This document shows, piece after piece, positions 26,069 to 45,309 of a DNA stretch of 64,000 nt. The stretch spans positions 1,632,001-1,696,000 of the forward strand of contig CAVWLP010000002.1 of NCBI GenBank assembly GCA_963755915.1. The letters run 5' to 3'. The notes under the pieces were generated by a model that saw nothing but the letters and a program-made list of their open reading frames with translations, made no database searches and was not told the DNA's origin. The DNA comes from an uncultured Phycisphaerales bacterium (GTDB taxonomy: Bacteria > Planctomycetota > Phycisphaerae > Tepidisphaerales > Tepidisphaeraceae). Position numbers and translations under genes: made by a program. How positions within the stretch are numbered: the first letter of the stretch is position 1; the number at the start of each line of letters is the position of its first letter.

Positions 26069-26544
26069 ATGGCTGTTTTGTGGAAAAAACTTCGGCCGGG
26101 GGAGTGGGGGGGCGAGTGGGAGGCGGAGGAGCTGAATGGGGCGGCCGCGGAGGTGGGGGATGGGGTGGTAATTACGAAGGCGGGGGGGGAGAGGGTTTTG
26201 ATCGCGGCGGTGGGGGCGGAGGTTTGGGTGAATGGGGAGCGGGTGGGGCTGGGAATTCGGGTTCTGCGGGATCGGGATGCGATTGGCGTGGGGCCGGGGG
26301 GAATTTTTTCTATTCGAGCGAGAGCCTGGCGCGGGTGGAGCGTTTTTCGGAGGCGCGGGGGGTGGTCTGCGCGGTGTAAGGGTGAGATTTGCGGAGGGGA
26401 TGTGGTGCGGTGCCCGAAGTGCGGGGCGATTCATCATCAGACGGGGGAGTTTTCTTGCTGGACGTATGCGGAGAAGTGCGCCTGTGCGACCAGGGGACGG
26501 GGCTGGATGGGGTTTATCAGTGGATCCCGGAGGGGTTGGAATGA
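26069..26544 (+). CDS. FHA-like plus prokaryotic RING-finger protein, putative E3 (frameshifted)
   Basis: VWVNG..V..G...L.D.D.I.VG; reconstructed C-x2-C...CPKCGAIHH...CW...C-x2-C; TGA overlaps the E1 ATG. Confidence 0.72.
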
Positions 26545-27614
26545 GCGGGCAAAATTCCAAATTGAAGGGTGTGGGCGTGATCGGGAACGGGAATGTTGGA
26601 TCGCAGCTGGCGGTGCAAATTGCGCGGAGGGATGACGTTGGGGAGATCGTGCTGTGCGACGATCAGGTTTATACGAACGAGAATGTGCGTTGCCAGGAGA
26701 TTGATCGGGAGGATGTGGGGTTGGCGAAGGCGGAGGCATTGGCGCGGCGGCTGAGGAAGATTCGGGAGAACCTGAAAGTTACGGCGATTGTGGATCGGGT
26801 GGAGAATGTGCCGGCGGGGAGGTTCAAAGAGCATTTGATTGTCGGATGCGTGGACATGAAGCTTTCGAGGGCGGAAATCAATCGGATCAGGTGCCGGCTT
26901 GGATTGGCCTGCCTGGATGTGGCGATTCGGGCGGATGGGTTGCTGGCGCGGGTGGATGTGTATGGAGCGGGGGCTGGGGATGCGTGCATCGAGTGCGCGT
27001 TTACGGAGCGGGATTATCAGCAGATTTCGCGGAGTTATGCGTGCGATGGGGGAGTGAAAGACGCGCCGGCGACGGGGGCGAGCGCGGCGCTGGGGGGACT
27101 GGCGGCGTCGCTGGCGGTGCTGGAGTGCGGGAAAATTCTGGAGCGGGGGATGAGCAGCGATCTGGTGGGGAAGCAGATCGTGATCGAGGCGGAGAGACAT
27201 CACGTTTATGTGAATTCGCTGCGGAGGAATCCTGGGTGCCGGTTTGACCATCGGGTTTGGGAGATTGGGCGGAAGCGGGTGGGAACGCTGGGGGAGATTG
27301 TGGTGGGCGGGCCAAAGAAGGGGATTGCGGTGGAGGGGAAATCGTGGATTACGCGGGTGGTTTGCCGGGGGTGTGGGGATCAGCGGAGGGTGGTGATGTT
27401 GCAGGGGAGGGAGAAGGGAATGGGGAAGTGTGAGAAGTGCGGCGGGGATGTGCAGCCGCTGGGGTTTGGCATGGTGCCGCGGCTGGAAATCTGTGGGGAA
27501 CTGGCGGAGAGGGGGATTGGGGATGTGGGGCTGTTGAGCGGAGATGTTGTGAGCGTGGGGGATGGGGAGGGCGAGGAATTCATCGAACTGGTGGGGGCGG
27601 GGGTGGAAGGGTGA
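26541..27614 (+). CDS. ThiF/E1 ubiquitin-activating-like enzyme with a C-terminal zinc ribbon
   Basis: GNGNVG, DDQVY..ENV..Q, LAK, GCVD, CIEC, candidate catalytic Cys in SYAC, CRFDH, CRGC/CEKC. Confidence 0.88.
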   Translation: MSGQNSKLKGVGVIGNGNVGSQLAVQIARRDDVGEIVLCDDQVYTNENVRCQEIDREDVGLAKAEALARRLRKIRENLKVTAIVDRVENVPAGRFKEHLIVGCVDMKLSRAEINRIRCRLGLACLDVAIRADGLLARVDVYGAGAGDACIECAFTERDYQQISRSYACDGGVKDAPATGASAALGGLAASLAVLECGKILERGMSSDLVGKQIVIEAERHHVYVNSLRRNPGCRFDHRVWEIGRKRVGTLGEIVVGGPKKGIAVEGKSWITRVVCRGCGDQRRVVMLQGREKGMGKCEKCGGDVQPLGFGMVPRLEICGELAERGIGDVGLLSGDVVSVGDGEGEEFIELVGAGVEG

Positions 27615-27621
27615 GGATGCA

Positions 27622-28167
27622 ATGGATCGGATCTTTGCGAAATTTCTGGAGAAGCAGTGGGCAGCGGGAATGGAGCTGGCGGCGAGCAGCGATCTGCTGC
27701 GGCTCAAGGCGCTGCGGACTACGGATGGGCCGGCGCAGCATTTCATTGCGCGGTTTTATTGCAAGGGGTTGGTGAAGAATGCGAACGGGGAGGTGGCGAC
27801 GCGGGAGCGCTGGGATATCGGGATTTTTTTCCCAGACGATTATCTCAGGCGAGCGAATACTTTTGAGATTTTATCGTGGCTGTATCCGCGGAATGTTTTC
27901 CATCCAAATATTCTGGTGCCGGCGATCTGTTTGGGGGAGAAGTTTTTCCGGCCGGGGTTGCCGCTGGTGGAGATTTTGTTCCAGGTGCATGGGTTGATCA
28001 CGTATCGGAGGTGGGCGTCTCAGGTGAGTTTGAACGCGGAAGCCGGGCTCTGGGCGGTGAATAACCAAAATCGGTTTCCGGTGGACGATCGGCCACTGAA
28101 GAGGCGGAAGGTGGAGATTCAGGTGGAGGCTTCGGAGCCGAAAGGGGGAAGCCGTGAGATTGTGTGA
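27622..28167 (+). CDS. UBC-type E2 ubiquitin-conjugating enzyme
   Basis: FPDDY...FHPNI-x4-ICLG...LNAEA; canonical HPN motif with active-site Cys. Confidence 0.9.
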   Translation: MDRIFAKFLEKQWAAGMELAASSDLLRLKALRTTDGPAQHFIARFYCKGLVKNANGEVATRERWDIGIFFPDDYLRRANTFEILSWLYPRNVFHPNILVPAICLGEKFFRPGLPLVEILFQVHGLITYRRWASQVSLNAEAGLWAVNNQNRFPVDDRPLKRRKVEIQVEASEPKGGSREIV

Positions 28168-29134
28168 GCAGAGTGAGATTCGGGCGCGGGTGAACAAGGT
28201 TCTCGAAGAGTGGGTTGGGCGCGGGCGTGAAGCTGCCGACGGCCCCCTCCCCTGCCCTCCCCCGGGATACCGGGGGCGGGGGAAAGAGAGGGGTGTGACG
28301 GCAGTGGTGGGAGAGAAGTGGGTGGAGCTGTGCGCGCAGGTTGCGCGGGGGCGGATTCATGGGCTGGCGATCTCGCGGTGTGCGTGGGAACTAGCGCGGG
28401 TGAATGGGGCGCTGAACGGCGCGGCGAAGATCGGGGTGAGGGGAGGGGATGGGTGTGCGGAGATTTTTCGGGAGATTTGGATTGATTCGGAGGAGGGGCT
28501 GGGGCAACGGGTGCGCGAGGGGATGGGGGATATCGAGGAGGTTCAGGGGCGATTGCGGGGGGGTGGGGAGAATGGTTTGTCCGCGCAGGAAGGCGCGAGC
28601 GAGGGGGAAGATTTGGGTGAGATCATTCGGATGGCGGGTTGGAGGTGTAACCTGAGGAGCGAGGGTCGTGTGGCGGTGGAACTGGAGGTGCCGGGGATTT
28701 TTGTGCAGGCGATGGTGCGGGGGGGCAAAAGGATTTACGCGGCGGTGGAGGTGGGGCGGGGGGATTCCGCCGGTGGGGAGACGGCTCGACTGGGCTCGCC
28801 GAAGTCCGGCGGCACTGTTCTTTTGTCGGGGGCGTCGCGAGAGGCGATTGGGGTGGTGCTGCTGCAGGTGTCGGGGAGGGTGCGGTGGGTGCGCGGGGGA
28901 GTTCGGGAGGGGAAGGTCGTGCTGGAAGGGAGTGCCGGGTCGGCAGAGGCGGGGCATCTGTTGTCGGCGCTTTCGGTGGCGGCGGGGATGTCGGTGCGGG
29001 AAGTGGGGGCGCTGGGGGATGAGGAGACGGCAAAACGATTTCTTGCGATGCGAGGATGGTCTTCGCAATCGGCAGAAAGTGTTTCAAGACCAGAGGAGTA
29101 TGCAGATGAGTCAAGTGCAAACGATTTCGTTTGA
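28154..29134 (+). CDS. Hypothetical protein of the Ub/Pup operon (carries two in-frame short repeats)
   Basis: Overlaps E2 and Ubl; same codon bias as its neighbours. Confidence 0.65.
   Translation: MRLCEQSEIRARVNKVLEEWVGRGREAADGPLPCPPPGYRGRGKERGVTAVVGEKWVELCAQVARGRIHGLAISRCAWELARVNGALNGAAKIGVRGGDGCAEIFREIWIDSEEGLGQRVREGMGDIEEVQGRLRGGGENGLSAQEGASEGEDLGEIIRMAGWRCNLRSEGRVAVELEVPGIFVQAMVRGGKRIYAAVEVGRGDSAGGETARLGSPKSGGTVLLSGASREAIGVVLLQVSGRVRWVRGGVREGKVVLEGSAGSAEAGHLLSALSVAAGMSVREVGALGDEETAKRFLAMRGWSSQSAESVSRPEEYADESSANDFV
28243..28282 (+). repeat. REP-like palindromic repeat, family A (in frame)
   Basis: CCCCCTCCCCTGCCCTCCCCCGGGATACCGGGGGCGGGGG. Confidence 0.75.
28782..28805 (+). repeat. 24-bp repeat, family B (in frame)
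   Basis: CGGCTCGACTGGGCTCGCCGAAGT; 20/24 match to the istA tandem unit. Confidence 0.6.
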
Positions 29135-29384
29135 GGTGCGCGATGTGAGCGGGCAGAAGTCGGCTCGGGTGAAGGCGTGTCCGGTGGATGCATCGGTGGG
29201 GGAGGTGGTGCCTTCGCTGCTGGAGATGATGCAGCTTCCGCCGAACGATCCGGAAGGGAATCCGGTGAGTCATACGCTGCGGCGGAACCGGGATGGGCAG
29301 GTGCTGCTGGAGTCGGATGTGGTGGGGAGGGTGATCGAGCAGGGGGAGGAGTGTGTGTTGCAGCCCTCGATTGATGCGGGGTGA
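29106..29384 (+). CDS. Ubiquitin-like protein (YukD/EsaB-like) ending in Gly
   Basis: AGGAG RBS; 92 aa MSQVQTISFEVRDVSGQK...VLQPSIDAG-stop. Confidence 0.85.
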   Translation: MSQVQTISFEVRDVSGQKSARVKACPVDASVGEVVPSLLEMMQLPPNDPEGNPVSHTLRRNRDGQVLLESDVVGRVIEQGEECVLQPSIDAG

Positions 29385-29498: not shown

Positions 29499-30578
29499 AT
29501 GCAGGATGAGCGACTTGAATTTGGGCTGGAGCTTTCGCGTCGGGCGACGGGGGAACTTGTCGGGCGTGCGGCGGTGAAGGTGGATTGGGCGCCGGTGGAA
29601 GAGCATTTGATACTCAAGCTGGTGCGCGGGGGGAGCTGGAGGATTTTGATGCGGCGGTGGGGGTGACGCTGGAGCCGGTGTGGTCGAAGGAATTGCCGGT
29701 GGTGCGGGGGGTGAAGGCTACGGCAATGGCGCAAGGTGCGGGGTCGGCGTCGATGTTGGTGACGCTGGATTACTTTCGGCCGCTAGCGCAGCGGGCGGCG
29801 AATCGGCTGGTGGAGGTGGGGAAATTGCGGTCGGGGGAATTGTTTGAGTATCGCGTGGTGGCGAAGGAATTTTCGGCGAAAGGGAATGGGAAGCAGGGGC
29901 GGATTGTAATGGAGGCGGGGGCGAAGCCGGTGAATATTCTGCCGGGGCGGATGGATGAAATGATGGGGCGGGCGATTGGGTTTGGGGCGGGGGAGGAGCG
30001 GGATGTGCCGGTGTTTGTGGACTGGGGGGCGCTGGAGGAGGCTTCGGTTTTGACGCGGCAGGCGGGGGAATTGGAGACGGGGGGGATTCTGGTGGGGCAT
30101 GTGCGGAGGGATGTGGAGACGGGGGAGATTTTTCTGGAGGTGACGGCGCAGGTTGCGGCGCGGGCGAAGTCGCAGCTTACGCGGCTAACGTTCAGTCCGC
30201 AGACTTGGACGGAGCTGGAGGAGGGGGTGAAGGCGCGGGGGAAGAATGAGGTTTGGCTGGGGTGGTGGCATTCGCATAGTTTTTTCAAGAATGCGATTGA
30301 GACCGGGGGCGCGGCAGGGGCGGAAGAAGAATATGAATCGCGCGGGTCGCGGGTGGCGCGGGCGTTTTTGAGTGAAGAGGATGTGTTGTTGCACCGGAGC
30401 GTTTTTCCGCGGGCGTACAGCGTGGCGCTGCTATTGACGGATTCGCCGCGGTGGGGGCTTTCGTGGACACTTTTTGGATGGCGGGGGGATGGTGGCGCAG
30501 CGGGGATTTCATGTGGTGAATGTGCCGATGCCGGAGACATTTTTTTCATTGCGAGGTGGGAGTCATGCGAAGGTCTGA
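29499..30578 (+). CDS. JAB/MPN isopeptidase with an N-terminal extension (frameshifts near 29630 and 30487)
   Basis: ETGGILVG, LGWWHSH, FLSEED; reconstructed tail MVAQRGF...AKV-stop overlapping the ATPase start. Confidence 0.85.
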
Positions 30579-32239
30579 ATCGAATCAAATCATGGAGATT
30601 CTTGGGAAGCTGACGGCGACGGGAGAAGGATCGCTGGCGGCAGGGCAGAAGACGCAGCTTTTGCTGGAGCTGCATGCGCGGTCGCCGGAGGTGGGGGTGA
30701 TGGTGATGGGGGAAGTGTTTGGGCGATTGGAGCGGATGGATGCGGGGTTGAAGGAGGCGCGGGGGGCGGTGCAGGAGATGCGGGGGAAGTTTAACGAGCT
30801 GCTGGAGAAGACTTGGTATGTGGCGACGTTCGTCGAGTTGATTGGGAAGCCGGAGGAGAGGAATGCGCTGGTTTTTCAGGGGAGCAATAGCCGGGTGGTG
30901 GGGGTGTGCGGGGAGGTGAAGGTGGAGGAGCTGAGGAAGGGGTGCGAGGTTTTGCTGAACAAGGAGATGACGGCGATCGTGAAGTGCAGCCCGCGGAGGC
31001 GGAGTACCGGGGAGATCGCGACGGTGGTGGAGAAGACTTCGCGGGGGACGGTGATTTTGAAGAGCCGTGAGGAGGATGTGGAGGCGGAGCTTTCGGAGGA
31101 GCTGCGGGAAGTGGAATTGAAGGCGGGGGAGCGGGTGAGGTGGGAGCCGGCGGCGCGGATTGCGCTGGATCGCGTGGAGGAATCGGAGGCGGGGAGATTC
31201 TTGATGGGGGAGGTTCCCAAAACTTCGCTGGCGGCGGTCGGGGGGCAGGATGAGAACGTGATGAAGCTGATGGGGATTCTGACGGCGATGCTGGTGGATG
31301 CGAAGAGAGCGAAGGAGTATGGGTTGAATGGGAGAGCGAGCATTTTGTTGGTGGGGCCGCCGGGGTGCGGGAAGACGCTGATGGTGCGGGCGGCCGCGGG
31401 GGAGATATCGCGGATGACGGGGAAGGCGGTGCGGTTTTTCATCGTGAAGCCGAGCGAGTGGGAGAGCTGCCTGGTGGGGAATACGGAGAAGAATATCCGG
31501 ACGCTGTTCGCGAATTTGCGGGAGGCGACGAAGGATGGGTCGCAGGCGGTTTTGTTTCTGGATGAGGTGGACAGCATCGGGCGGGTTCGGGGGCATACGC
31601 AGGGGTATTACTCGGACAAGGCGCTGAACGCGCTGCTGACGGAGCTGGATGGGTTTGCGGAGAGGGATGGGGTTGCGGTGGTGGCGACGACGAATCGGAA
31701 GGATTTGATCGACAGCGCAGCTGCAGCAGAGGTTGTCGGATCATGAGATTCATGTGGGGCCGCCGGACATGAAGGGGGCGAAGGAGATTTTCGGGATTCA
31801 TCTGCGGGCGACGCTGCCGTTTGACCCCAATGGGCAGATGGCGGAGGCGACGCGGCGGGAGATGATCGAGACGGCGGTATCGCGGATTTATCACCCCAAT
31901 TCGCCGGTTGCGCAGATTTGCCGGTTGAAGTTCAATGACGGGAAGACGCGGATGGTGATGGCGAAAGACCTGGCGTGCGGGAGGTTGATTCAGCAGATCT
32001 GCGGGGCGGCGCAGCTTGCGGCGTATCAGCGGGAAATGCGCGGCGGGGAGGCGGGGATGACGGTGGGGGATATTGAGGAGGCGATTGCGGCGACGATCGA
32101 GCGGCTGGCGACGAATATCACGGTGCATAATGCGCGGAACCAGCTTGCGGATTTGCCTACGGATTTAACGGTGATTTCTGTGGAACCGATTGTGCGGAGG
32201 GTGGGGCGGCGGGGGGAGTATTTGGTGGAGGGGGCGTAG
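30565..32239 (+). CDS. arc: Proteasomal AAA+ ATPase, ARC/Mpa-like (frameshift near 31718)
   Basis: N-terminal coiled coil and OB-like region; GPPGCGKT, FLDEVDS, LLTELDG, TTNRKDLID; near-terminal GEYL. Confidence 0.85.
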
Positions 32240-32301
32240 ATGGGGATGACACGGGAAGCGCTCCCCTTCGGGTCGCGGCTAAACAAGAAGGGGGTGTGCG
32301 A

Positions 32302-34005
32302 ATGGAGATTTTTATGTCGGGAGAATTGGAAAGGGAGATTGCGAGCGATGGGGTGGTGCCGAAGCTTTGCGGGTCGGATGTGGAGCTGGGGAACTTTATC
32401 ATTGAAAGCGGGGGGCGTGGGGGGAATGAAACTGCTCCGGAAGCGGCGGCGGCGCTGCTGGCGCAGGTCAGGGGGCATGCACGGACGGTGGTGCGGAAGG
32501 AGGGTTATTTTGCGGTGGGGAGGGATTGGTATGAGGATGGATATGCGTCAACGTCGCCAGGCGGGGGGTATCGGCAGTATGCGCAGGATTTTGGGAGGAA
32601 GTTTCTGCCGAAAAATGGGGGGTGTGTTTATATCGATTTGAATCACCTGGAGATTTGTACGGCGGAGTGTTTTAGTGCGCTTCAGCATCTGGCGGCGTCG
32701 CGGGGGATGCTGCTGGTGGCGCGGGATGCGATGGTGCGGGCGAATGAATTGATGGGGGATCGGGCCGTCATCAAGGTGCTGGCGAACAATTCGGATGGAC
32801 AGGGGCACAGCTATGGGTCGCACGTGAATTACCTGGTGACGCGGCGGTGCTTCAACAACATTTTGTTTCGGAAAATGCACTACCTTCAGTTTTTGGCGTC
32901 GATGCAGGCTTCGGCGATTGTGCTCACCGGGGCGGGGAAGGTGGGGGCGGAGAATGGGGAGGGGGGGGTGAAGTATCAGATATCGGCGCGGGCGGATTTT
33001 ATCGAGACGACGATTTCGGAGGCGACGACGTATCGGAGGCCGCTGGTGAATGCGCGGGATGAATCGCTTTCCGGGCCGCGGGACGAGCGGGAGGGGGGAT
33101 TGGCGCGGCTGCATGTGATTATGTTTGACAATGTGCTGTGTCATCACGCGGCGCTGATGCGGGACACGATGATGCAGGTGGTGCTGGCGATGATCGAGCA
33201 GGGGCAGGTGCCGACGAAATTTTTACTGGATGAGCCGGTGACGGCGGTGCACGCGTGGAGCCGGGATCCGGGGCTGAAGGCGCGGGCGCGGCTGGTGGGG
33301 GGACGGGAGTTTACGGCGGTGGAATTTCTGGGGGCGATTTATGAGAAGGCGCGGAGGTTTGTGGATGCGGGGAGAGCGGCGGGGCTGGTGGCGGATGTGG
33401 AGCAGAATATGCGGGTGTGGGGAGAGTGCATGGAGAAGCTGCGCACGGGGGATATGGATTATTTGGCGGAGCGGATTGACTGGGTGGCGAAGATGCGGCT
33501 GCTGGAGCGGGCGCCGGCGAAGCATGGGTGGGAGGAGAGGCGGATGAAATATCTGGACAATTTGTGGTCGAGCCTGGATCCGGGGGAGGGGCTTTACTGG
33601 GGGCTGGAGAAGGCGGGGGGGGTGAAGCGAGTTGTGGAGGATGCGGCGGTGGAGCGGCTGGTGAATGAGCCGCCGGAGGAGACGCGGGCGTGGCTGCGGG
33701 CGTGGGTGCTGCGGAATGCGGCGTCAATGGTGGACGACGTGGACTGGGACATGGTGCGGCTGAGGTCGAGCCGGTTTGGGGATCGGGGGTGGCCGACGTA
33801 TCAGACGCTGCGGATGAACAATCCGTTTGGGTTTACGCGGGCGCGGTGCGAGGGGATTTTGCAATCGGCGGCGTCGCCAATGGAGGGGCTGAGGAGGTTG
33901 TTCAAAGAGATTGGGGAAGTGAATTCGGAAGAAAAATTGGATCGAGAAAGCTGGTCGGCCGGGGTGGTCCCGGATCGATCGGGCGAGTCGGAAAATTTTT
34001 CGTAA
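32302..34005 (+). CDS. dop: Pup ligase/deamidase family protein, Dop-like
   Basis: GSDVELG, Dop-loop-sized insert, NGGCVYIDLNHLE, NNSDG.G.SYGSH, YQISARADFIE, RPLVNARDE, RLHVI, PPEETRA. Confidence 0.82.
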   Translation: MEIFMSGELEREIASDGVVPKLCGSDVELGNFIIESGGRGGNETAPEAAAALLAQVRGHARTVVRKEGYFAVGRDWYEDGYASTSPGGGYRQYAQDFGRKFLPKNGGCVYIDLNHLEICTAECFSALQHLAASRGMLLVARDAMVRANELMGDRAVIKVLANNSDGQGHSYGSHVNYLVTRRCFNNILFRKMHYLQFLASMQASAIVLTGAGKVGAENGEGGVKYQISARADFIETTISEATTYRRPLVNARDESLSGPRDEREGGLARLHVIMFDNVLCHHAALMRDTMMQVVLAMIEQGQVPTKFLLDEPVTAVHAWSRDPGLKARARLVGGREFTAVEFLGAIYEKARRFVDAGRAAGLVADVEQNMRVWGECMEKLRTGDMDYLAERIDWVAKMRLLERAPAKHGWEERRMKYLDNLWSSLDPGEGLYWGLEKAGGVKRVVEDAAVERLVNEPPEETRAWLRAWVLRNAASMVDDVDWDMVRLRSSRFGDRGWPTYQTLRMNNPFGFTRARCEGILQSAASPMEGLRRLFKEIGEVNSEEKLDRESWSAGVVPDRSGESENFS

Positions 34006-34017
34006 AGGAGTTGTGTC

Positions 34018-34212
34018 ATGGATACGGAGATGATGGTTCGGGAAATTCATCGTGAGGCGAATGTGGTGCAGGGCGGGCCGGAGGGTGGGGATTCGCAGAC
34101 GGCGGAACAGTGTCAGCGGATGCTGAACGAGGCGGATGCGATGATCGATCAGGCGCTTTCGGGGGATGCGGAGGCGTTTTTGAACGCGAACCGGCAGCAG
34201 GGAGGAGAGTAA
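34018..34212 (+). CDS. pup: Pup/UBact-like small protein modifier ending in GGE
   Basis: AAGGAG RBS; 64 aa; ...MIDQALSGDAEAFLNANRQQGGE; lies between the two Pup-ligase-fold genes. Confidence 0.85.
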   Translation: MDTEMMVREIHREANVVQGGPEGGDSQTAEQCQRMLNEADAMIDQALSGDAEAFLNANRQQGGE

Positions 34213-34214
34213 CC

Positions 34215-35842
34215 ATGCGGCGCCTGATGGGAAATGAGAATGAGTATGCGTTTAATGCGACGGGCCCGAGGGGAGGCGCGGCAGACCGCACGCGCGCACT
34301 GCATGAGCTGAATGCGATTGCGGCGAAAGAGCATGCGTGTCTGCCTAGCCTGGGGGGGAGCGGGATTTTTATGGGGAATGGGAGCCGGTCTTACGTGGAT
34401 GCGGGGGAGCACCAGGAGATGTGTACGCCGGAGGTGGATAATCCGTGGGACCTGGTGCGGTATCTGCTGGCGGGGGAGAAGATTCTGTTTGACCTGGCGA
34501 AGAAGCTGGTGGATCGCCGGAAGGTGGGGAGCGCGAAGTTTTATAAGGTGAACGTGGATTATTCGGGGATGGGGACGACGTGGGGGGCGCATGAGAATTA
34601 CATGCACCGGGCGGATGTTTCGAAGCTGCCGAAGGATATGATTCCGTTTTTGATTTCGCGGGTGATTATCACGGGGGCGGGGGGATTCGATCCGACGTCG
34701 GCTGGGAGCTGCCGGTTTACGCTTTCGCCGCGGTCGTTTCACATCAACGCGAGCGTATCGAGCTGTTCGACGGGGGGGCGGGGGATTTATCACACCAAGA
34801 GCGAGTCGCTGTGCAACGGGGGATATCAGCGGTTGCACGTGCTGGTGGGGGAGAGCAACTGCTCGCAGCGGGTGACCTGGCTGAAGGGGGCGACGACGTC
34901 GATGGTGGTGGCGATGGCGGAGGCGGGGTTGAATCCGGGGGAGGGGATGGGGCTGCGATCGCCGGTGGATGCGTACCGGATTTTCGCGTCGGATCCGACA
35001 TGTAAAGAGACGGCGGCGACGGCGGGGGGCGGGCGGGTGAGCGCACTGCAGATTCAGCGGCATTATTGTGAGATGGCGCGGCGGGTGGCGGGGGAACCGT
35101 TTATGCCGGCGTGGGCGCCGGTGGCGGTGGCGGAGTGGGAGGCGATGCTGACGCGATTGGAGAATGCGCCGCAGAGCGTGGCGACTTGCCTGGACTGGGC
35201 CATTAAGCACAGCATCTTCGAGTCGCGGATTCAGCGGCGGGGATTTTCGTGGTGGCTGGTGAAGCAGTGGAACAATTTGATGGGGCTGCTGCGGGTGTGC
35301 GGCGATCTTACGGCGCAGACGGAGCCGAGGCCGCAACTGAACGCGAAATTTGTGCTCGATCCGCAGGGTCCGCTGAAGAACGTGGTGAAGGAGATGACGC
35401 CGATTCTGGCGGCGCGGGGGATGAGCTGGGAGCAGATGGAGGCATTTTTGCAATTGAGGCTGGAGCTTTTTGAGCTGGACATGCGGTTTGGGGAGCTGGG
35501 GCCGGGGGGGATTTTCAATGGGCTGGATGCGGCGGGGGTTTTGAACCATCGGGTGGCGGGGGTGGAGGAGATCGAGCGGGCGACGAGGGAGCCACCGGCG
35601 ACGGGGCGGGCGAAAGTGCGCGGGGAGGCGATCCGGCGGCTGCATGGCGAAGCGCGGCGGTATGGGTGCGACTGGGCGTATATCGTGGATACGCAGACGC
35701 GGGCGGCGCTGGATATGCGCAATCCGTTCACCGACAGCGAAAAGTGGGTGGCGCACCTCAGCGCACGGCGGAGTTCGCGGCGCTGGGGCTGGGCTGGCTG
35801 CATGATTTGCGGACGAATATTGCTGAGAGGTGCTCGACATGA
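34215..35842 (+). CDS. pafA: Pup-protein ligase, PafA-like (probable frameshift near 35750)
   Basis: MRRLMGNENEY, NGSRSYVDAGEHQE, AGE, GAHENY, RLHVLVGESN, LDWAIK, PPATGRA. Confidence 0.83.
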
Positions 35843-36992
35843 TCGTGTTACCAAAATCACTTTTGAAGGAATTGCAGCAGCGGAAGGTGGGGGTGAGGGT
35901 TCTGGATGCCGACACGCTGATGCTGCGGCAGGTGCCGATCAGGGAGGATATGTTCAGCAAGGGGACGACGAATCTGCTGGTGAAGCGTCCGTCGCCGGGG
36001 AAGCCGTATTTGGCGCTGGTGGATGAGGGGCTGAACTATATCGGGGCGGACCGGGATAAGCGGACGGTGCTGCCGGGCGATTGCGTGCGGCAGGGGTGGC
36101 GGGCGCTTTCGCTGGATACGGCGGCGGATCGGGATATGGCTAGCGTGGTGCAGAATGCGCTCAAGATTCTGGGGTTTGATGGGGGGGAATTTTCGGGATT
36201 ACTGGAGAGGTTTGGGAAGAGGATTGAGGGGGAGGTTCGAGAGGTGGTGGGGAGGGAAGAGCAGATCAATGAGGTGATGGCGTGTTTGTGCCGACGCGAG
36301 GCGTGTATGGGGCTGATTGGGGGGGGAGCGGGGGCGGGGAAGAGTTGTTTGTTACGGGGGGTGGCGAAGAAGGTAAATGAGAGTCCGAATTTGGTGAGGA
36401 TTTTTTCGAGGCCCTCACCCCTGCCCTCTCCCGGAGTACCGGGAGAGGGGGTAAGAGCGGGGATGATCGAAGTGAATCTTCTGGAGCTGCTTTCATCCAC
36501 CAGCGATGAGGCGGCGATCCGGTGTTTGATGGAATTGATGGAGGAGGCGGTCCAGAGGCGCCGGTTTTGGCGATTGAGCAGATTGAAATTCTGCTGAACC
36601 AGGTTGCCAATGGGCACCTGGTTTTGAAGCAGGGGATCGACCGGGGGGCGAAGATCGTGGGGACGGCGATGCCGGAGGGGGTGAAGCTGGTGGGGATCGG
36701 GGATCTTTTGCGGCGGGTGCAGGTGGTTTCGCTTCCCGAGCTTGGGCGCGGCGCGGTGATGCAGATTCTCGCTAAGGCGCAGGAGGGATATGGGGTGGAG
36801 ATTCATGAAACGGTTGCGGCGGCGTGCATCAAGGCGGCGAGGGAATTGCCGGGGTGTTTTCCGGGGAAGGCGCTAAGCTTGCTCGATGCGGCGGTAAGTT
36901 TGGCGGTCGTCGGCGGGGCGAAGGTCGTGGCTGCGGATGATATCTATGCGGCGGCGGCGCGGTTCTGGCCGGCGCAACGGGAGAAAGAATGA
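35839..36992 (+). CDS. Single-NBD ClpA/ClpB-like AAA+ protein with an uncharacterised N-terminal domain (frameshift near 36555)
   Basis: VVGREEQI...L.RR...GGAGAGKS; LLRRVQ.V.LPE; FPGKALSLLDAA (compare ClpB LPDKAIDL.DEA). Confidence 0.75.
36412..36451 (+). repeat. REP-like repeat, family A (in frame, PSPLPSPGVPGEG)
   Basis: CCCTCACCCCTGCCCTCTCCCGGAGTACCGGGAGAGGGGG. Confidence 0.8.
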
Positions 36993-37870
36993 CGGATTCG
37001 AAATGCGGCGGCAGACCAGAGTGTATCCTGGATGTGTGGGATCAATCGGCGCACGATGATGAAATTTGCGCGAACGCGATCGGGACGCTGATCGTGTCGC
37101 GGACGGAATTGCTGAAGGAATTTGATTCGCTGGCGGCGGTGGAGGTGTGTTTGCTGGAGAAGATTCAGGTGATGCCGGATTGCGTGGAAGCGCTGCCGTG
37201 GCTGCTGGCGCTGTCGCAGATCATGGTGAAGACGGGGCGGGCGGAGGCGGGCGAAATGTTTCGCAATCAGGCCATCGAAGTGATTGCGAAAAGCGGGTGG
37301 AACTCGGAACAGATCTCGGAGCACGCGGAGAACCTGCGGGAAATGATCCAGAGCGCGGGGTCGGAGGCGGCCGCGAACAGCGTCCGCCGGCGATTGCGGA
37401 CTCGGGCGCTGATGGGGGACGAGGATGAGGTGGCGTATTTTGAGCTTCGCGAGCTGGCGTTTGAGGCATATAGCGATGGGGCGTTTGCAGATGCGGAGGA
37501 GATCTATCGGCATCTGCTTTCAAAGGATTACGAGAAGCCGGCGACGTTGTGCCACCTGGCGCGGGTGCTGGTGGGATTGGGAAGGGATGGCGAGGCGATA
37601 GAGGCTGTGGAGCGGGCATATTCACTGCGCTCGGAGGCGGAGGGGTATGTGATTGCGAGGATTTATTATCTGCGGGCGCTGCTGGCAACGCTGGGTGGGA
37701 GAGAGGCCCAGGGGCATGTGTCGGATTTGAAGCTGGCGCTGCGGATTGCGGAGAATCGGACGGAGTGGCTGCTGGGGCCGATGCTGGATGCGGTGCGGGG
37801 GAGGATGGAGGGGGGCGCATATGCGCGGTTTGTGGAGTTGGGGGAGATGTTTCGGGATGCGGAGGAGTGA
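36989..37870 (+). CDS. TPR-like helical repeat protein, last gene of the Ub/Pup operon
   Basis: AY..G.F.DAE..Y..LL...HLARVL..LGR..EA...ERA; ATGA overlap. Confidence 0.7.
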   Translation: MTDSKCGGRPECILDVWDQSAHDDEICANAIGTLIVSRTELLKEFDSLAAVEVCLLEKIQVMPDCVEALPWLLALSQIMVKTGRAEAGEMFRNQAIEVIAKSGWNSEQISEHAENLREMIQSAGSEAAANSVRRRLRTRALMGDEDEVAYFELRELAFEAYSDGAFADAEEIYRHLLSKDYEKPATLCHLARVLVGLGRDGEAIEAVERAYSLRSEAEGYVIARIYYLRALLATLGGREAQGHVSDLKLALRIAENRTEWLLGPMLDAVRGRMEGGAYARFVELGEMFRDAEE

Positions 37871-44448: not shown

Positions 44449-45309
44449 TCAGTTCAGGCTGGCCTCGAACGCTTCGGGGCTTTGGTAGCCTATCGCCGAG
44501 TGACGTCTCTGGCGATTGTAAAACACTTCAATGTACTCAAAGATCGAACGCCGAGCCTCCGCTTGCGTTGCGTAGTGCTCGTGATAAATGAGCTCCGTCT
44601 TCAGCGTGCTGAAAAAGCTCTCCATCACCGCGTTGTCGTAGCAATTGCCGGTGCGGCTCATGCTCCGCTCCATCCCATGCTCCGCCAGCATCTGTCGATA
44701 AGTCTCGCAGGCGTATTGGACACCGCGATCGGAGTGGTGCAGCAAACCTCGCTCCGGTCGGCGATGTGTCAGCGCCATCGATATCGCTTCCAGACACAGC
44801 TCACTTCGCAGATGATCGGCCATCGACCAGCCGACTATTTTCCGACTGCACAGGTCGATCACGGCCGCCAGGTATAGGAATCCTTCATCCGTCGGAACGT
44901 AGGTGATGTCGCAGCACCACTTGCGGTTGGGCGCCTCAGTTGCGAACTGGCGGTCCAGCACATTGGCCGCGACCGGCTCATCGTGATTCGAATCGGTGGT
45001 ATGGACGACGAATCGCCGGCGAATCCGCGATTGCAATCCGGCCTGTTTCATCAGACGCGCCACCGTGTTCACGCAGACGCTCACCTGCCGATCCGCCAGC
45101 TCCGCGTGCACCCGCGGGCTGCCGTAGGTATAGCGACTCTCCTCATGAACCTCGCGGATCTTCTCAGTCAGCTCTTCCCGGCGCTTGTGCCGCGGGCTGG
45201 CTGGACGTTTCAGCCAGGCGTAATACCCGCTGCGGCTGACTTCCAGCGCATCGCACAATGCGGCCAGATCGAACGGGTCCCAATGTTCTTTGATCCAGGC
45301 GAATCTCAT
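44449..45309 (-). CDS. IS3 transposase OrfB (DDE)
   Basis: YGSPRV, WCCDITY, HHSDRGVQY, GNCYDNA.MESFF. Confidence 0.95.
   Translation of the reverse strand: MRFAWIKEHWDPFDLAALCDALEVSRSGYYAWLKRPASPRHKRREELTEKIREVHEESRYTYGSPRVHAELADRQVSVCVNTVARLMKQAGLQSRIRRRFVVHTTDSNHDEPVAANVLDRQFATEAPNRKWCCDITYVPTDEGFLYLAAVIDLCSRKIVGWSMADHLRSELCLEAISMALTHRRPERGLLHHSDRGVQYACETYRQMLAEHGMERSMSRTGNCYDNAVMESFFSTLKTELIYHEHYATQAEARRSIFEYIEVFYNRQRRHSAIGYQSPEAFEASLN

Follow-up and report, generated by a model that had tools for sequence, protein, structure and literature searches.

Introduction

Pupylation, the tagging of proteins with the small modifier Pup, has been studied almost only in Actinobacteria. Corynebacterial Pup ends in Glu. 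UBact is a small Pup-like tag of diderm bacteria that adjoins Dop and PafA homologs, and its C-terminus typically reads R-(S/T)-G-(E/Q). Here we analyse a stretch of 64,000 nucleotides (the window) from an uncultured Phycisphaerales bacterium (contig CAVWLP010000002.1, positions 1,632,001 to 1,696,000) and, within it, a gene at 34018-34212 for a Pup-like modifier (the tag) that lies between two enzymes of the Pup_ligase family. The tag is probably a divergent member of the Pup family that works in a pupylation pathway without a proteasome.

Among the systems described so far, that of Corynebacterium glutamicum comprises ARC, Pup, PafA and Dop without a proteasome core, and its ARC disassembles pupylated bacterioferritin (PMC12288473). 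Planctomycete Pup orthologs have been reported from Rhodopirellula, with a G[EQ] end, no linkage to proteasome genes and a membrane-inserted ligase (Iyer, Burroughs, Aravind 2008, PMC2588565), and for some Planctomycetes only a single PafA/Dop-related copy is mentioned (Hecht et al. 2020, PMC7947786).

Results

A conserved gene encodes the Pup-like tag

34018-34212, forward strand: Pup-like modifier of 64 amino acids, lysine-free, C-terminus QQGGE; identified from the open reading frame (ORF) call, relatives, profiles and matches to PDB chains.

The ORF starts with ATG at 34018, stops with TAA at 34210-34212 and encodes the protein MDTEMMVREIHREANVVQGGPEGGDSQTAEQCQRMLNEADAMIDQALSGDAEAFLNANRQQGGE, with the C-terminal sequence IDQALSGDAEAFLNANRQQGGE. 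In coordinates and in sequence it is exactly the 64-residue frame ending in GGE that an initial annotation, made from the letters of the window alone, had called. A Shine-Dalgarno sequence, AAGGAG, lies 7-8 nt 5′ of the ATG, and three genes are tightly packed, with the stop of dop at 34005, the tag at 34018-34212 and the start of the ligase gene at 34215. Both flanking genes belong to the Pup_ligase family (PF03136; E=4.5e-92 upstream and 2.1e-83 downstream), and they are the only PF03136 genes in the whole genome (6.63 Mb in 3 contigs, completeness estimate 81%). The order dop-pup-pafA with a free C-terminal Glu, as first proposed, is thus supported. Contigs from the short-read metagenome run X3, which possibly comes from the same sample from which the window was assembled, cover 33931-34081 and 34100-34250 with 0 differences, the GGE codon included.

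The downstream enzyme was found in 7 of 40 related genomes, namely in 6 of 12 of the same genus and in one of another genus of the family, and in none of the 16 genomes from other families of the class. All seven carry a small frame ending in R/D-GGQ directly before the ligase gene. The initial annotation had named the lack of a conserved GG(E/Q)-ending ORF in homologous loci as one result that would speak against it; the ORF is present in 7/7 ligase-carrying relatives. An equivalent frame, ending in AGGQ and flanked likewise, occurs at a locus of a Phycisphaerales metagenome-assembled genome (MAG; locus L024) whose enzyme is 64% identical. Among 31 scanned loci the tag was found in seven (E from 2e-24 to 2e-8), all of them loci with both enzymes, and these seven tags end five times in GGQ and twice in GGE.

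A word-based homolog search returned only three relatives, each of 64 amino acids and 83-94% identity. This picture of rarity was misleading and was corrected by an exhaustive profile search. Profile A1, built from 11 tag sequences and searched against 1.84 billion cluster representatives, matched 555 of them at E<=1e-3; 25 of these matches reach E<=1e-10. With few exceptions, the 150 matches listed have lengths of 60-70 amino acids, and their alignments extend to the last residue. Three named public records of relatives all carry the label "hypothetical protein"; one comes from a Tepidisphaeraceae MAG and the nearest named loci from Planctomycetaceae and Phycisphaerales MAGs, which bears out the planctomycete host suspected at the outset. 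In a survey of 400 genomes drawn evenly from the phylum, strong matches to the tag profile (E<=3e-16) occurred in six, exactly those with the eleven-gene cluster described below; five further matches were weak (E from 2e-5 to 8e-4), and Pup_ligase genes of any type were present in 42 of the 400.

Conservation within the family is concentrated at the C-terminal end. Alignment A2 (150 rows) has the consensus M..RER...L...R..A.RLL.A.D.AI.RALSGDSE.FL.A.RQ.GGQ, and the C-terminal family consensus reads ...AIdRALSGDSEaFLrAnRQxGG[QE]. Gln60 is invariant in A2, and I43, L47, S48, F54, L55, G62 and G63 are conserved in at least 90%. Lysine is absent from the window tag and from 93 of 150 family members, the family mean being 1.0% Lys against 12% Arg, and a tag without lysine cannot be chained or self-tagged. 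The tag ORF is therefore a real, conserved gene, and the tag family is a genuine protein family under selection.

The GGE ending and its GGQ counterpart

Across 151 family members (P0003-P0153), 120 end in GGQ, 20 in GGE and 11 otherwise (SGQ in three, GAQ in two, and GGK, SAQ, VGQ, HGE, TGE and VGE in one each). With 140/151 ending in GG(Q/E), and with a window tag of 64 amino acids ending in GGE, the family fits the description of 50-90 residues and a G[EQ] end given for Pup in the text of PMC2588565. GGE is thus the minority state, 20/151, and yet an ordinary one. The six closest sequences (at least 83% identity) include both forms, GGE in P0001, P0002, P0154 and P0155 and GGQ in P0003 and P0004, and P0155 (GGE) and P0003 (GGQ) even fall in one 90%-identity cluster. 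CAG and GAG differ by a single base. Because the two endings are one base apart and mixed among near-identical relatives, the population appears to toggle between the forms, and the lineage therefore presumably retains a deamidase.

These findings bear on the earlier suggestion that the Dop-like enzyme serves only as a depupylase. That the GGE allele needs no deamidation still stands; a role confined to depupylation is unproven, given the toggling between GGE and GGQ and the altered Dop residues described below.

One further tag deserves mention. Locus L099 (G111:C63, 496-789), from a planctomycete genome with the gene order tag-PafA-Dop, encodes a tag ending in ..VFLEYVMQKGGE. This ending is closer to actinobacterial Pup than to the local family and suggests a separate acquisition.

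The tag family is a divergent branch of the Pup superfamily

With both profiles, A1 and A2, the six best matches in the PDB are solved Pup chains, aligned through the terminal GGQ/GGE. For A1 they range from 7oxy_B (E=1.3e-4) down to 3m9d_G (1.5e-3), and for A2 from 7px9_G, matched over almost the full length (5.5e-5), to 8.8e-3. Chain 7px9_G also agrees with the actinobacterial Pup ending IDDVLEENAEDFVRAYVQKGGQ quoted in the initial annotation. These alignments show that the tag is homologous to Pup and belongs to the Pup superfamily.

Scores against curated hidden Markov models (HMMs) speak against a plain assignment to Pup. The window tag scores 14.2 bits (E=0.085; cut-off 27) against PF05639 and 16.5 bits (E=0.0065; cut-off 41.45) against TIGR03687, the model of the Pup C-terminus, and so lies below both cut-offs. 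PF05639 matches only 1 of 11 close members at E<=1 and TIGR03687 only 22 of 150 family members at E<=1; none reaches the cut-off in either case. A six-frame genome search with PF05639 did not list the window tag, so that this route is insensitive for a short divergent gene.

The UBact model, NCBIfam NF033388 (54 positions, cut-off 35 bits), gave no match to the window tag at E<=1, to any of the 11 close members at E<=10 or to any of the 150 family members at E<=1, nor did it pick out the tag locus when the genome was searched in six frames (E<=10). The same model found nothing in 401 phylum genomes at E<=0.001, a search without a positive control and hence not evidence of absence. In addition, the window tag ends in R-Q-Q-G-G-E and not in the UBact motif. 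Scoring against the Pup and UBact HMMs, the check first suggested, therefore came out divided, with Pup matched weakly and below its cut-offs and UBact not at all; the view that the tag is closer to Pup than to UBact holds (TIGR03687 at E=0.0065 and 22/150 members, against 0/150 for NF033388). The family is a separate, divergent and mostly unannotated branch of Pup that neither curated model captures.

A Dop ortholog and a PafA-type ligase flank the tag

32296-34005, forward strand: Dop ortholog of 569 amino acids, Pup_ligase family, with Dop-type spacing, a long insertion at the Dop-loop site and replaced nucleotide/Mg-site residues.
34215-35842, forward strand: PafA-type ligase (PF03136); one base is missing after 35765, so that the assembled ORF wrongly extends to 36026; corrected stop 35840-35842.

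The two enzymes were compared at the positions that discriminate Dop from PafA in Table 1 of Hecht et al. 2020 (PMC7947786), and a tree of 69 proteins over 475 columns was inferred by an IQ-TREE quick search (LG+C20 with posterior mean site frequencies, PMSF); the tree left out the loci of two unpublished genomes, and its support values are from the Shimodaira-Hasegawa-like approximate likelihood ratio test (SH-aLRT) only. The upstream enzyme scores higher as Dop than as PafA, both with NCBIfam models (254 versus 229 bits) and against solved chains (170 versus 129). All 12 planctomycete upstream genes read Y-I-D-x-x-H-x-E, the Dop spacing after the catalytic Asp, and their distance from GhExE to Asp is 68-124 residues, compared with 79-117 in 13 actinobacterial Dop and 49-50 in 12 PafA. 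Since the tree joins the 12 upstream genes and the 13 actinobacterial Dop in one group (SH-aLRT 97), the upstream gene is classed, by its sequence, as a Dop ortholog.

The downstream enzyme favours PafA over Dop with the NCBIfam models (219.5 versus 207.6 bits). Its residue 2 aligns to PafA residue 10, it is without a Dop-loop, and its alpha-loop, H..VSS, aligns to PafA His188, Ser194 and Ser195. A one-residue insertion with Gly after the catalytic Asp is specific to PafA (Table 1, PMC7947786); the window ligase reads YVD-AGE-H, and the pattern D-x-G-x-H is found in 9 of 12 downstream genes. The pattern was unmatched in L007_B, L008_B and L010_B, and a second pattern scan also missed L011_B; in an alignment slice the site reads D-V-G-G-H in L011_B and D-C-Q-K-Y in L007_B. 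The distance from GhExE to Asp is 55-56 in the downstream genes and 49-50 in the 12 actinobacterial PafA. The downstream gene has kept the two Glu residues of GhExE as well as the catalytic Asp, HENY and, in the TRQ strand, Arg. By indel and motif the downstream gene is of PafA type; orthology is left unsettled by the tree.

A number of results weigh against these assignments, and against ordinary activities of the enzymes. Both proteins fall below the equivalog cut-offs, the downstream enzyme with 219.5 against 551 bits for TIGR03686 (PafA) and the upstream enzyme with 254 against 492 bits for TIGR03688 (Dop). Against solved chains (phmmer), the downstream enzyme scores higher with Dop (164 bits) than with PafA (127 bits); its equivalent of Dop R227 is Lys, with Arg in only 4 of 12 downstream genes; and in the quick tree search the downstream genes (SH-aLRT 100), PafA (87) and the Dop group form a three-way split without resolution. 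The clade of Dop orthologs replaces R90, K142 and R180 in 12/12 and, likewise in 12/12, has Asp for the first Glu of GhExE and a hydrophobic residue for the Glu of HENY. Cofactor use and activity of the Dop ortholog are accordingly uncertain.

In the Dop-ortholog clade, 12/12 members retain the residues that correspond to D94, R205, R227 and H241 of Acidothermus Dop. There are 82 alignment columns in which at least 24 of the 25 Dop and PafA sequences from actinobacteria carry the same residue; the upstream protein keeps 53 of them and the downstream protein 57. D94 activates water, R227 and H241 hold phosphate and R90 contacts the alpha-phosphate (PMC8599861). The downstream clade and the single-copy clade retain most of the residues that the Dop-ortholog clade replaces. 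We infer that the nucleotide/Mg site has been remodelled in planctomycete Dop orthologs, and, because the replaced residues include R90, even depupylase activity cannot be assumed.

In the same tree, the single-copy ligases of planctomycetes, 20 in number, cluster on their own (SH-aLRT 99). Single-copy planctomycete ligases (L036-L058) are without the Y-x-D...H-P-E catalytic-Asp pattern of the others. No single-ligase locus matched the window-tag family profile at E<0.1; the best, at E=0.3, was a small frame at L055 (1146-1397) ending in ..LEVQGGGE. The tags of the single-ligase system thus seem to be a further divergent group. Two other loci, L011 (G020) and L012 (G008), have the PafA-type gene within longer open frames (861 and 917 amino acids) with a C-terminal extension of ~350 residues. 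We considered whether the ligase is fused here to the Clp-D1-like or the tetratricopeptide repeat (TPR) protein described below and rejected this, as the extension gave no BLAST match to the Clp-D1-like protein of the window and only weak ones (E>=0.011) to its TPR protein.

An ARC/Mpa-like ATPase and no 20S proteasome genes

30565-32239, forward strand: ARC/Mpa-like AAA+ ATPase made up of a coiled coil, a pair of OB domains and an AAA domain; an extra base at ~31719, an assembly error, divides it into two ORFs.

The ATPase contains the domains Prot_ATP_ID_OB_N, Prot_ATP_ID_OB_C and AAA and matches pup_AAA (TIGR03689) at E=1.1e-51; its 176 bits fall short of the cut-off of 505 bits. Mpa has GQYL as its very C-terminus; the ATPases of this family have in common a C-terminal [HY]-R-[YF]-L, after which come another 2-9 residues.

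A complex of two copies of the ATPase N-terminal part (1-215) with the tag was predicted, using self-made alignments, with a score of 0.35, compared with 0.01 for the best of three controls. The runs agree in at least 63% of contacts, with a predicted local distance difference test value (pLDDT) of at least 51 for the partner. Of 80 solved complexes, 58 reach the mark used for such scores, as do 2 of 110 mismatched pairs; at scores of 0.60 or below, only 7 of the 80 and both mismatches do so. Structure prediction with the ARC coiled coil, as the initial annotation had advised, thus weakly suggests that the ATPase may bind the tag, and the very weakness of the signal counts on the other side. 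As an Mpa-Pup complex has already been solved (3m9d), the pass may reflect likeness only.

Genes of a 20S proteasome were not found in the window genome (completeness 81%), in which the alpha model TIGR03691 has no match and the beta model TIGR03690 matches only an HslV, at 18 bits. A 20S beta gene over cut-off is absent from all five relatives with the cluster, and no alpha or beta gene over cut-off was present in those tested. The linked prcA/prcB of Pup-proteasome systems were found neither at the locus nor in the genome. PF00227 matches only HslV and a beta-like protein of 305 amino acids (C2:4949455-4950009; L002 1471-2388). With the archaeal beta model the latter, which starts with MTYCLGIV, scores 28 bits. 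It is not HslV and not a bacterial 20S subunit either, and may be of the Anbu/BPH type.

In the assembly, three single-base indels within 5.3 kb disrupt the genes of the ARC-like, PafA-type and Clp-D1-like proteins. Contigs from four public runs were compared with 31400-36700; those of three soil runs are identical bar gaps and those of one peat run ~93% alike. The contigs of all four runs lack the extra base at 31719, two runs have an additional C behind 35765, and two have an additional G behind 36561. As the indels are absent from independent contigs, and as L024 has an intact ATPase of 561 amino acids and an intact ligase of 542, the breaks are assembly errors and the genes are intact in nature. 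This suggests that the window is a long-read assembly with residual indel errors, so that other apparent pseudogenes in the genome are equally suspect. The low completeness estimates for those genomes of the genus that consist of few contigs are in line with such errors.

The Pup module is joined to an E1-E2-Ubl-JAB operon

Upstream of the ATPase and downstream of the ligase lie seven further genes that complete the cluster of eleven, among them one for a beta-grasp ubiquitin-like protein (Ubl).

26538-27614, forward strand: E1-like ThiF enzyme with C-terminal CxxC...CxxC; start inferred, the ORF opening at 26232.
27622-28167, forward strand: E2-like protein with an HPN...C motif (HPNILVPAICL, by eye); no Pfam match.
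28154-29134, forward strand: conserved protein of 326 amino acids, no family assigned, between the E2 and Ubl genes.
29100-29384, forward strand: beta-grasp Ubl candidate of ~94 amino acids, ending in SIDAG; YukD E=0.0014.
29585-30613, forward strand: JAB/JAMM peptidase; PADLOC JAB 1.7e-7.
35830-36992, forward strand: single-AAA protein resembling the ClpA/ClpB D1 domain; the assembly is without one base after 36561.
36989-37870, forward strand: TPR protein of 293 amino acids, co-conserved downstream.

The E1-like protein matches PF00899 (E=1.2e-15) and the PADLOC E1-E2 model (1.3e-14). In relatives the Ubl ends in [NS]-[IV]-[DE]-A-G, followed by a stop or by 3-9 extra residues, and such extra residues past A-G are the pattern expected of a tag matured by a peptidase.

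Seventeen other regions (L024, L093-L108) were annotated by BLAST and HMM. In ten of them E1, E2, Ubl, JAB, ARC, Dop, Pup and PafA follow in this order on one strand (L024, L093, L094, L095, L096, L098, L100, L101, L102 and L104, from at least five family codes, f1, f33, f48, f49 and f65). As for the rest, the contig of L097 (f58) ends inside JAB, the 9.4-kb contig of L103 holds only Dop-Pup-PafA, L099 has the different, actinobacterial-like order and tag, and L105-L108 are divergent or short.

Inside the Clp-D1-like gene, a short stretch at ~36410-36451 (bin 36356-36532) encodes ..SRPSPLPSPGVPGEG... Summed contig depth in four metagenomes is 11-383 in this bin and 0.5-97 in the bin 32108-32284, against ~3-8 elsewhere; many contigs break at ~36410-36451, and in the 93%-alike relative 60 other letters replace 123 there. 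The high depth of the two bins points to highly repeated short elements. Some 6.5 kb downstream of the cluster, an ORF of 286 amino acids (44449-45309, reverse strand) resembles, by eye, an IS3-family transposase (integrase core).

Discussion

In the pathway we propose, whose catalytic steps are modelled on homologous enzymes, the C-terminal helices of the disordered, lysine-free tag would bind in the groove of the downstream PafA-type ligase, and the Glu-ending allele would need no prior deamidation. The upstream Dop ortholog would remove the tag and, in relatives that carry GGQ, would convert Gln to Glu. The coiled coils of the ARC/Mpa-like hexamer would grip the middle helix of the tag, and tagged proteins would be unfolded. 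Because the genome has no 20S proteasome, the outcome would be remodelling or disassembly, as in C. glutamicum, or hand-over to another protease.

Other explanations have to be set against this one. Were the ORF a chance frame in GC-rich DNA or a pseudogene remnant of a decaying locus, one might point to the three neighbours that are frameshifted in the window and to an antisense ORF of 91 amino acids that overlaps the tag ORF; yet none of the three frameshifts is present in independent contigs, and length and C-terminus are conserved over 555 cluster representatives, so that this explanation is already refuted and its probability negligible. It is very improbable, too, that the tag is UBact, the Pup-like tag of Gram-negative phyla, rather than Pup. 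The diderm planctomycete host would suit UBact, as would the R-Q ahead of the terminal G-[EQ], which resembles UBact endings; by contrast, NF033388 matches neither the tag, the 11 close members, the 150 family members nor the locus in six frames, the ending is QGGE instead of R-(S/T)-G-E, and no proteasome genes are linked. The tag might also act non-covalently, by serving the ARC-like ATPase or the neighbouring Ubl system as adaptor or regulator, with the Dop ortholog as a tag-binding pseudoenzyme. The loss of R90, K142, the HENY Glu and R180 in 12/12 Dop orthologs would agree with this, but the GG[QE] end in 140/151 and the nearly invariant Q60, G62 and G63 are as expected of a conjugated C-terminus, the PafA-type partner retains its ligase motifs, the Dop orthologs keep the equivalents of D94, R205, R227 and H241 in 12/12, and the lack of lysine in 93/150 tags is sensible for a tag that is joined to lysine; we therefore hold a purely non-covalent role to be improbable.

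Slightly less improbable, though still unlikely, is a role in immunity, in which the eleven-gene cluster would be a Bil-type (bacterial ISG15-like) anti-phage defence island and the tag would be conjugated to phage proteins and not serve host proteostasis. The upstream genes correspond to the Bil gene set of Ubl, E2, JAB and E1 (PMC11601603; bioRxiv 10.1101/2024.11.21.623966), E1 and JAB match the PADLOC E1-E2 and JAB models (1.3e-14 and 1.7e-7), and the cluster is patchy, being present in 6/12 genomes of the genus, with strong tag matches in 6/400 genomes of the phylum. Against it, no PADLOC model matches the Dop ortholog, the E2, the Ubl or the 326-residue protein; order and content are stable over at least six family codes (f1, f33, f48, f49, f58 and f65), unlike a fast-shuffling island; and no phage or mobile genes directly adjoin, the nearest transposase lying ~6.5 kb downstream. 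Proteasome-less pupylation thus remains our preferred reading, and within it a bolder version can be framed, which we regard as less likely than not. The Pup-like tag would then make up half of a conserved machine with two tags, in which ubiquitin-type and Pup-type systems work with two AAA+ unfoldases, ARC-like and Clp-D1-like, and no proteasome. The two tags, which differ chemically, would be put on common substrates, or each on the enzymes of the other system, and would deliver to one unfoldase that they share. If true, this would be the first prokaryotic pathway to combine both kinds of protein tagging.

The points of most interest lie outside the tag's own coordinates: how large the unannotated family is, the altered active site of Dop, and the conserved operon with its two tags. 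A large sister branch of the tag is now defined (555 cluster representatives); it escapes the curated models of Pup and UBact, and public records give it the label "hypothetical protein". Its enzymes vary naturally at just those residues by which Dop, the hydrolase, differs from PafA, the ligase, and this offers an independent test of how the two activities diverged. The fixed linkage to a Ubl operon, in a phylum often discussed for eukaryote-like traits, raises the prospect that bacteria may combine two tagging chemistries in one pathway.

Comparison with known systems

The solved Pup chains used for comparison (3m9d, 7px9, 7oxy and 4bjr) represent actinobacterial Pup, as known from M. tuberculosis and C. 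glutamicum. With actinobacterial Pup the window tag shares a length of ~64 amino acids, a Gly-rich acidic N-terminal half, a helical C-terminal half that aligns to the last residue, a GG(Q/E) end and a gene placed between dop and the ligase side of the locus. It differs in lying below the curated Pup cut-offs and in having no prcB/prcA after the tag gene. The family consensus, ALSGDSEaFLrAnRQxGGQ, stands against IDDVLEENAEeFVRaYVQKGGQ in actinobacterial Pup, with Arg before the GG in the window family where actinobacterial Pup has Lys and with 93/150 members lysine-free. UBact resembles the window tag as a small, Pup-like diderm tag beside Dop and PafA homologs; it is set apart by the failure of NF033388 to match, by its ending and by its proteasome linkage.

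Like that of corynebacteria, the window tag ends in Glu. The C. glutamicum locus (arc-dop-pup-pafA) has the same four genes and no 20S proteasome (PMC12288473). By comparison, the window host is a soil planctomycete, its Dop ortholog has altered nucleotide-site residues, its ARC C-terminus carries extra residues after the conserved R-[YF]-L, and its module is joined to the E1-E2-Ubl-JAB operon, a Clp-D1-like ATPase and a TPR protein. The system of Rhodopirellula and Plesiocystis, a single membrane-inserted ligase with Pup, is similar in its planctomycete host (Rhodopirellula), the absence of proteasome linkage and a G[EQ]-ending tag (PMC2588565); it has one ligase, whereas two soluble paralogs, along with an ARC ATPase, are encoded in the window.

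The Bil system likewise has separate genes for Ubl, E2, JAB and E1, and the main text of its preprint contains no occurrence of Pup, AAA or Planctomyc (bioRxiv 10.1101/2024.11.21.623966). The window differs in its order, E1-E2-X-Ubl-JAB with the extra 326-residue protein, and in being continuous with ARC-Dop-Pup-PafA. A locus type that combines a Dop ortholog, a PafA-type ligase and ARC with a Bil-like Ubl operon, or any combined Ubl-plus-Pup operon, was not found in the literature searched, and supplementary files (Iyer 2008 Additional file 1, Hecht 2020, and the Bil/Bub operon tables) may list such loci. What is new here in comparison with these systems is the Pup module joined to an E1-E2-Ubl-JAB operon, an arrangement that recurs in 10 of 17 other regions.

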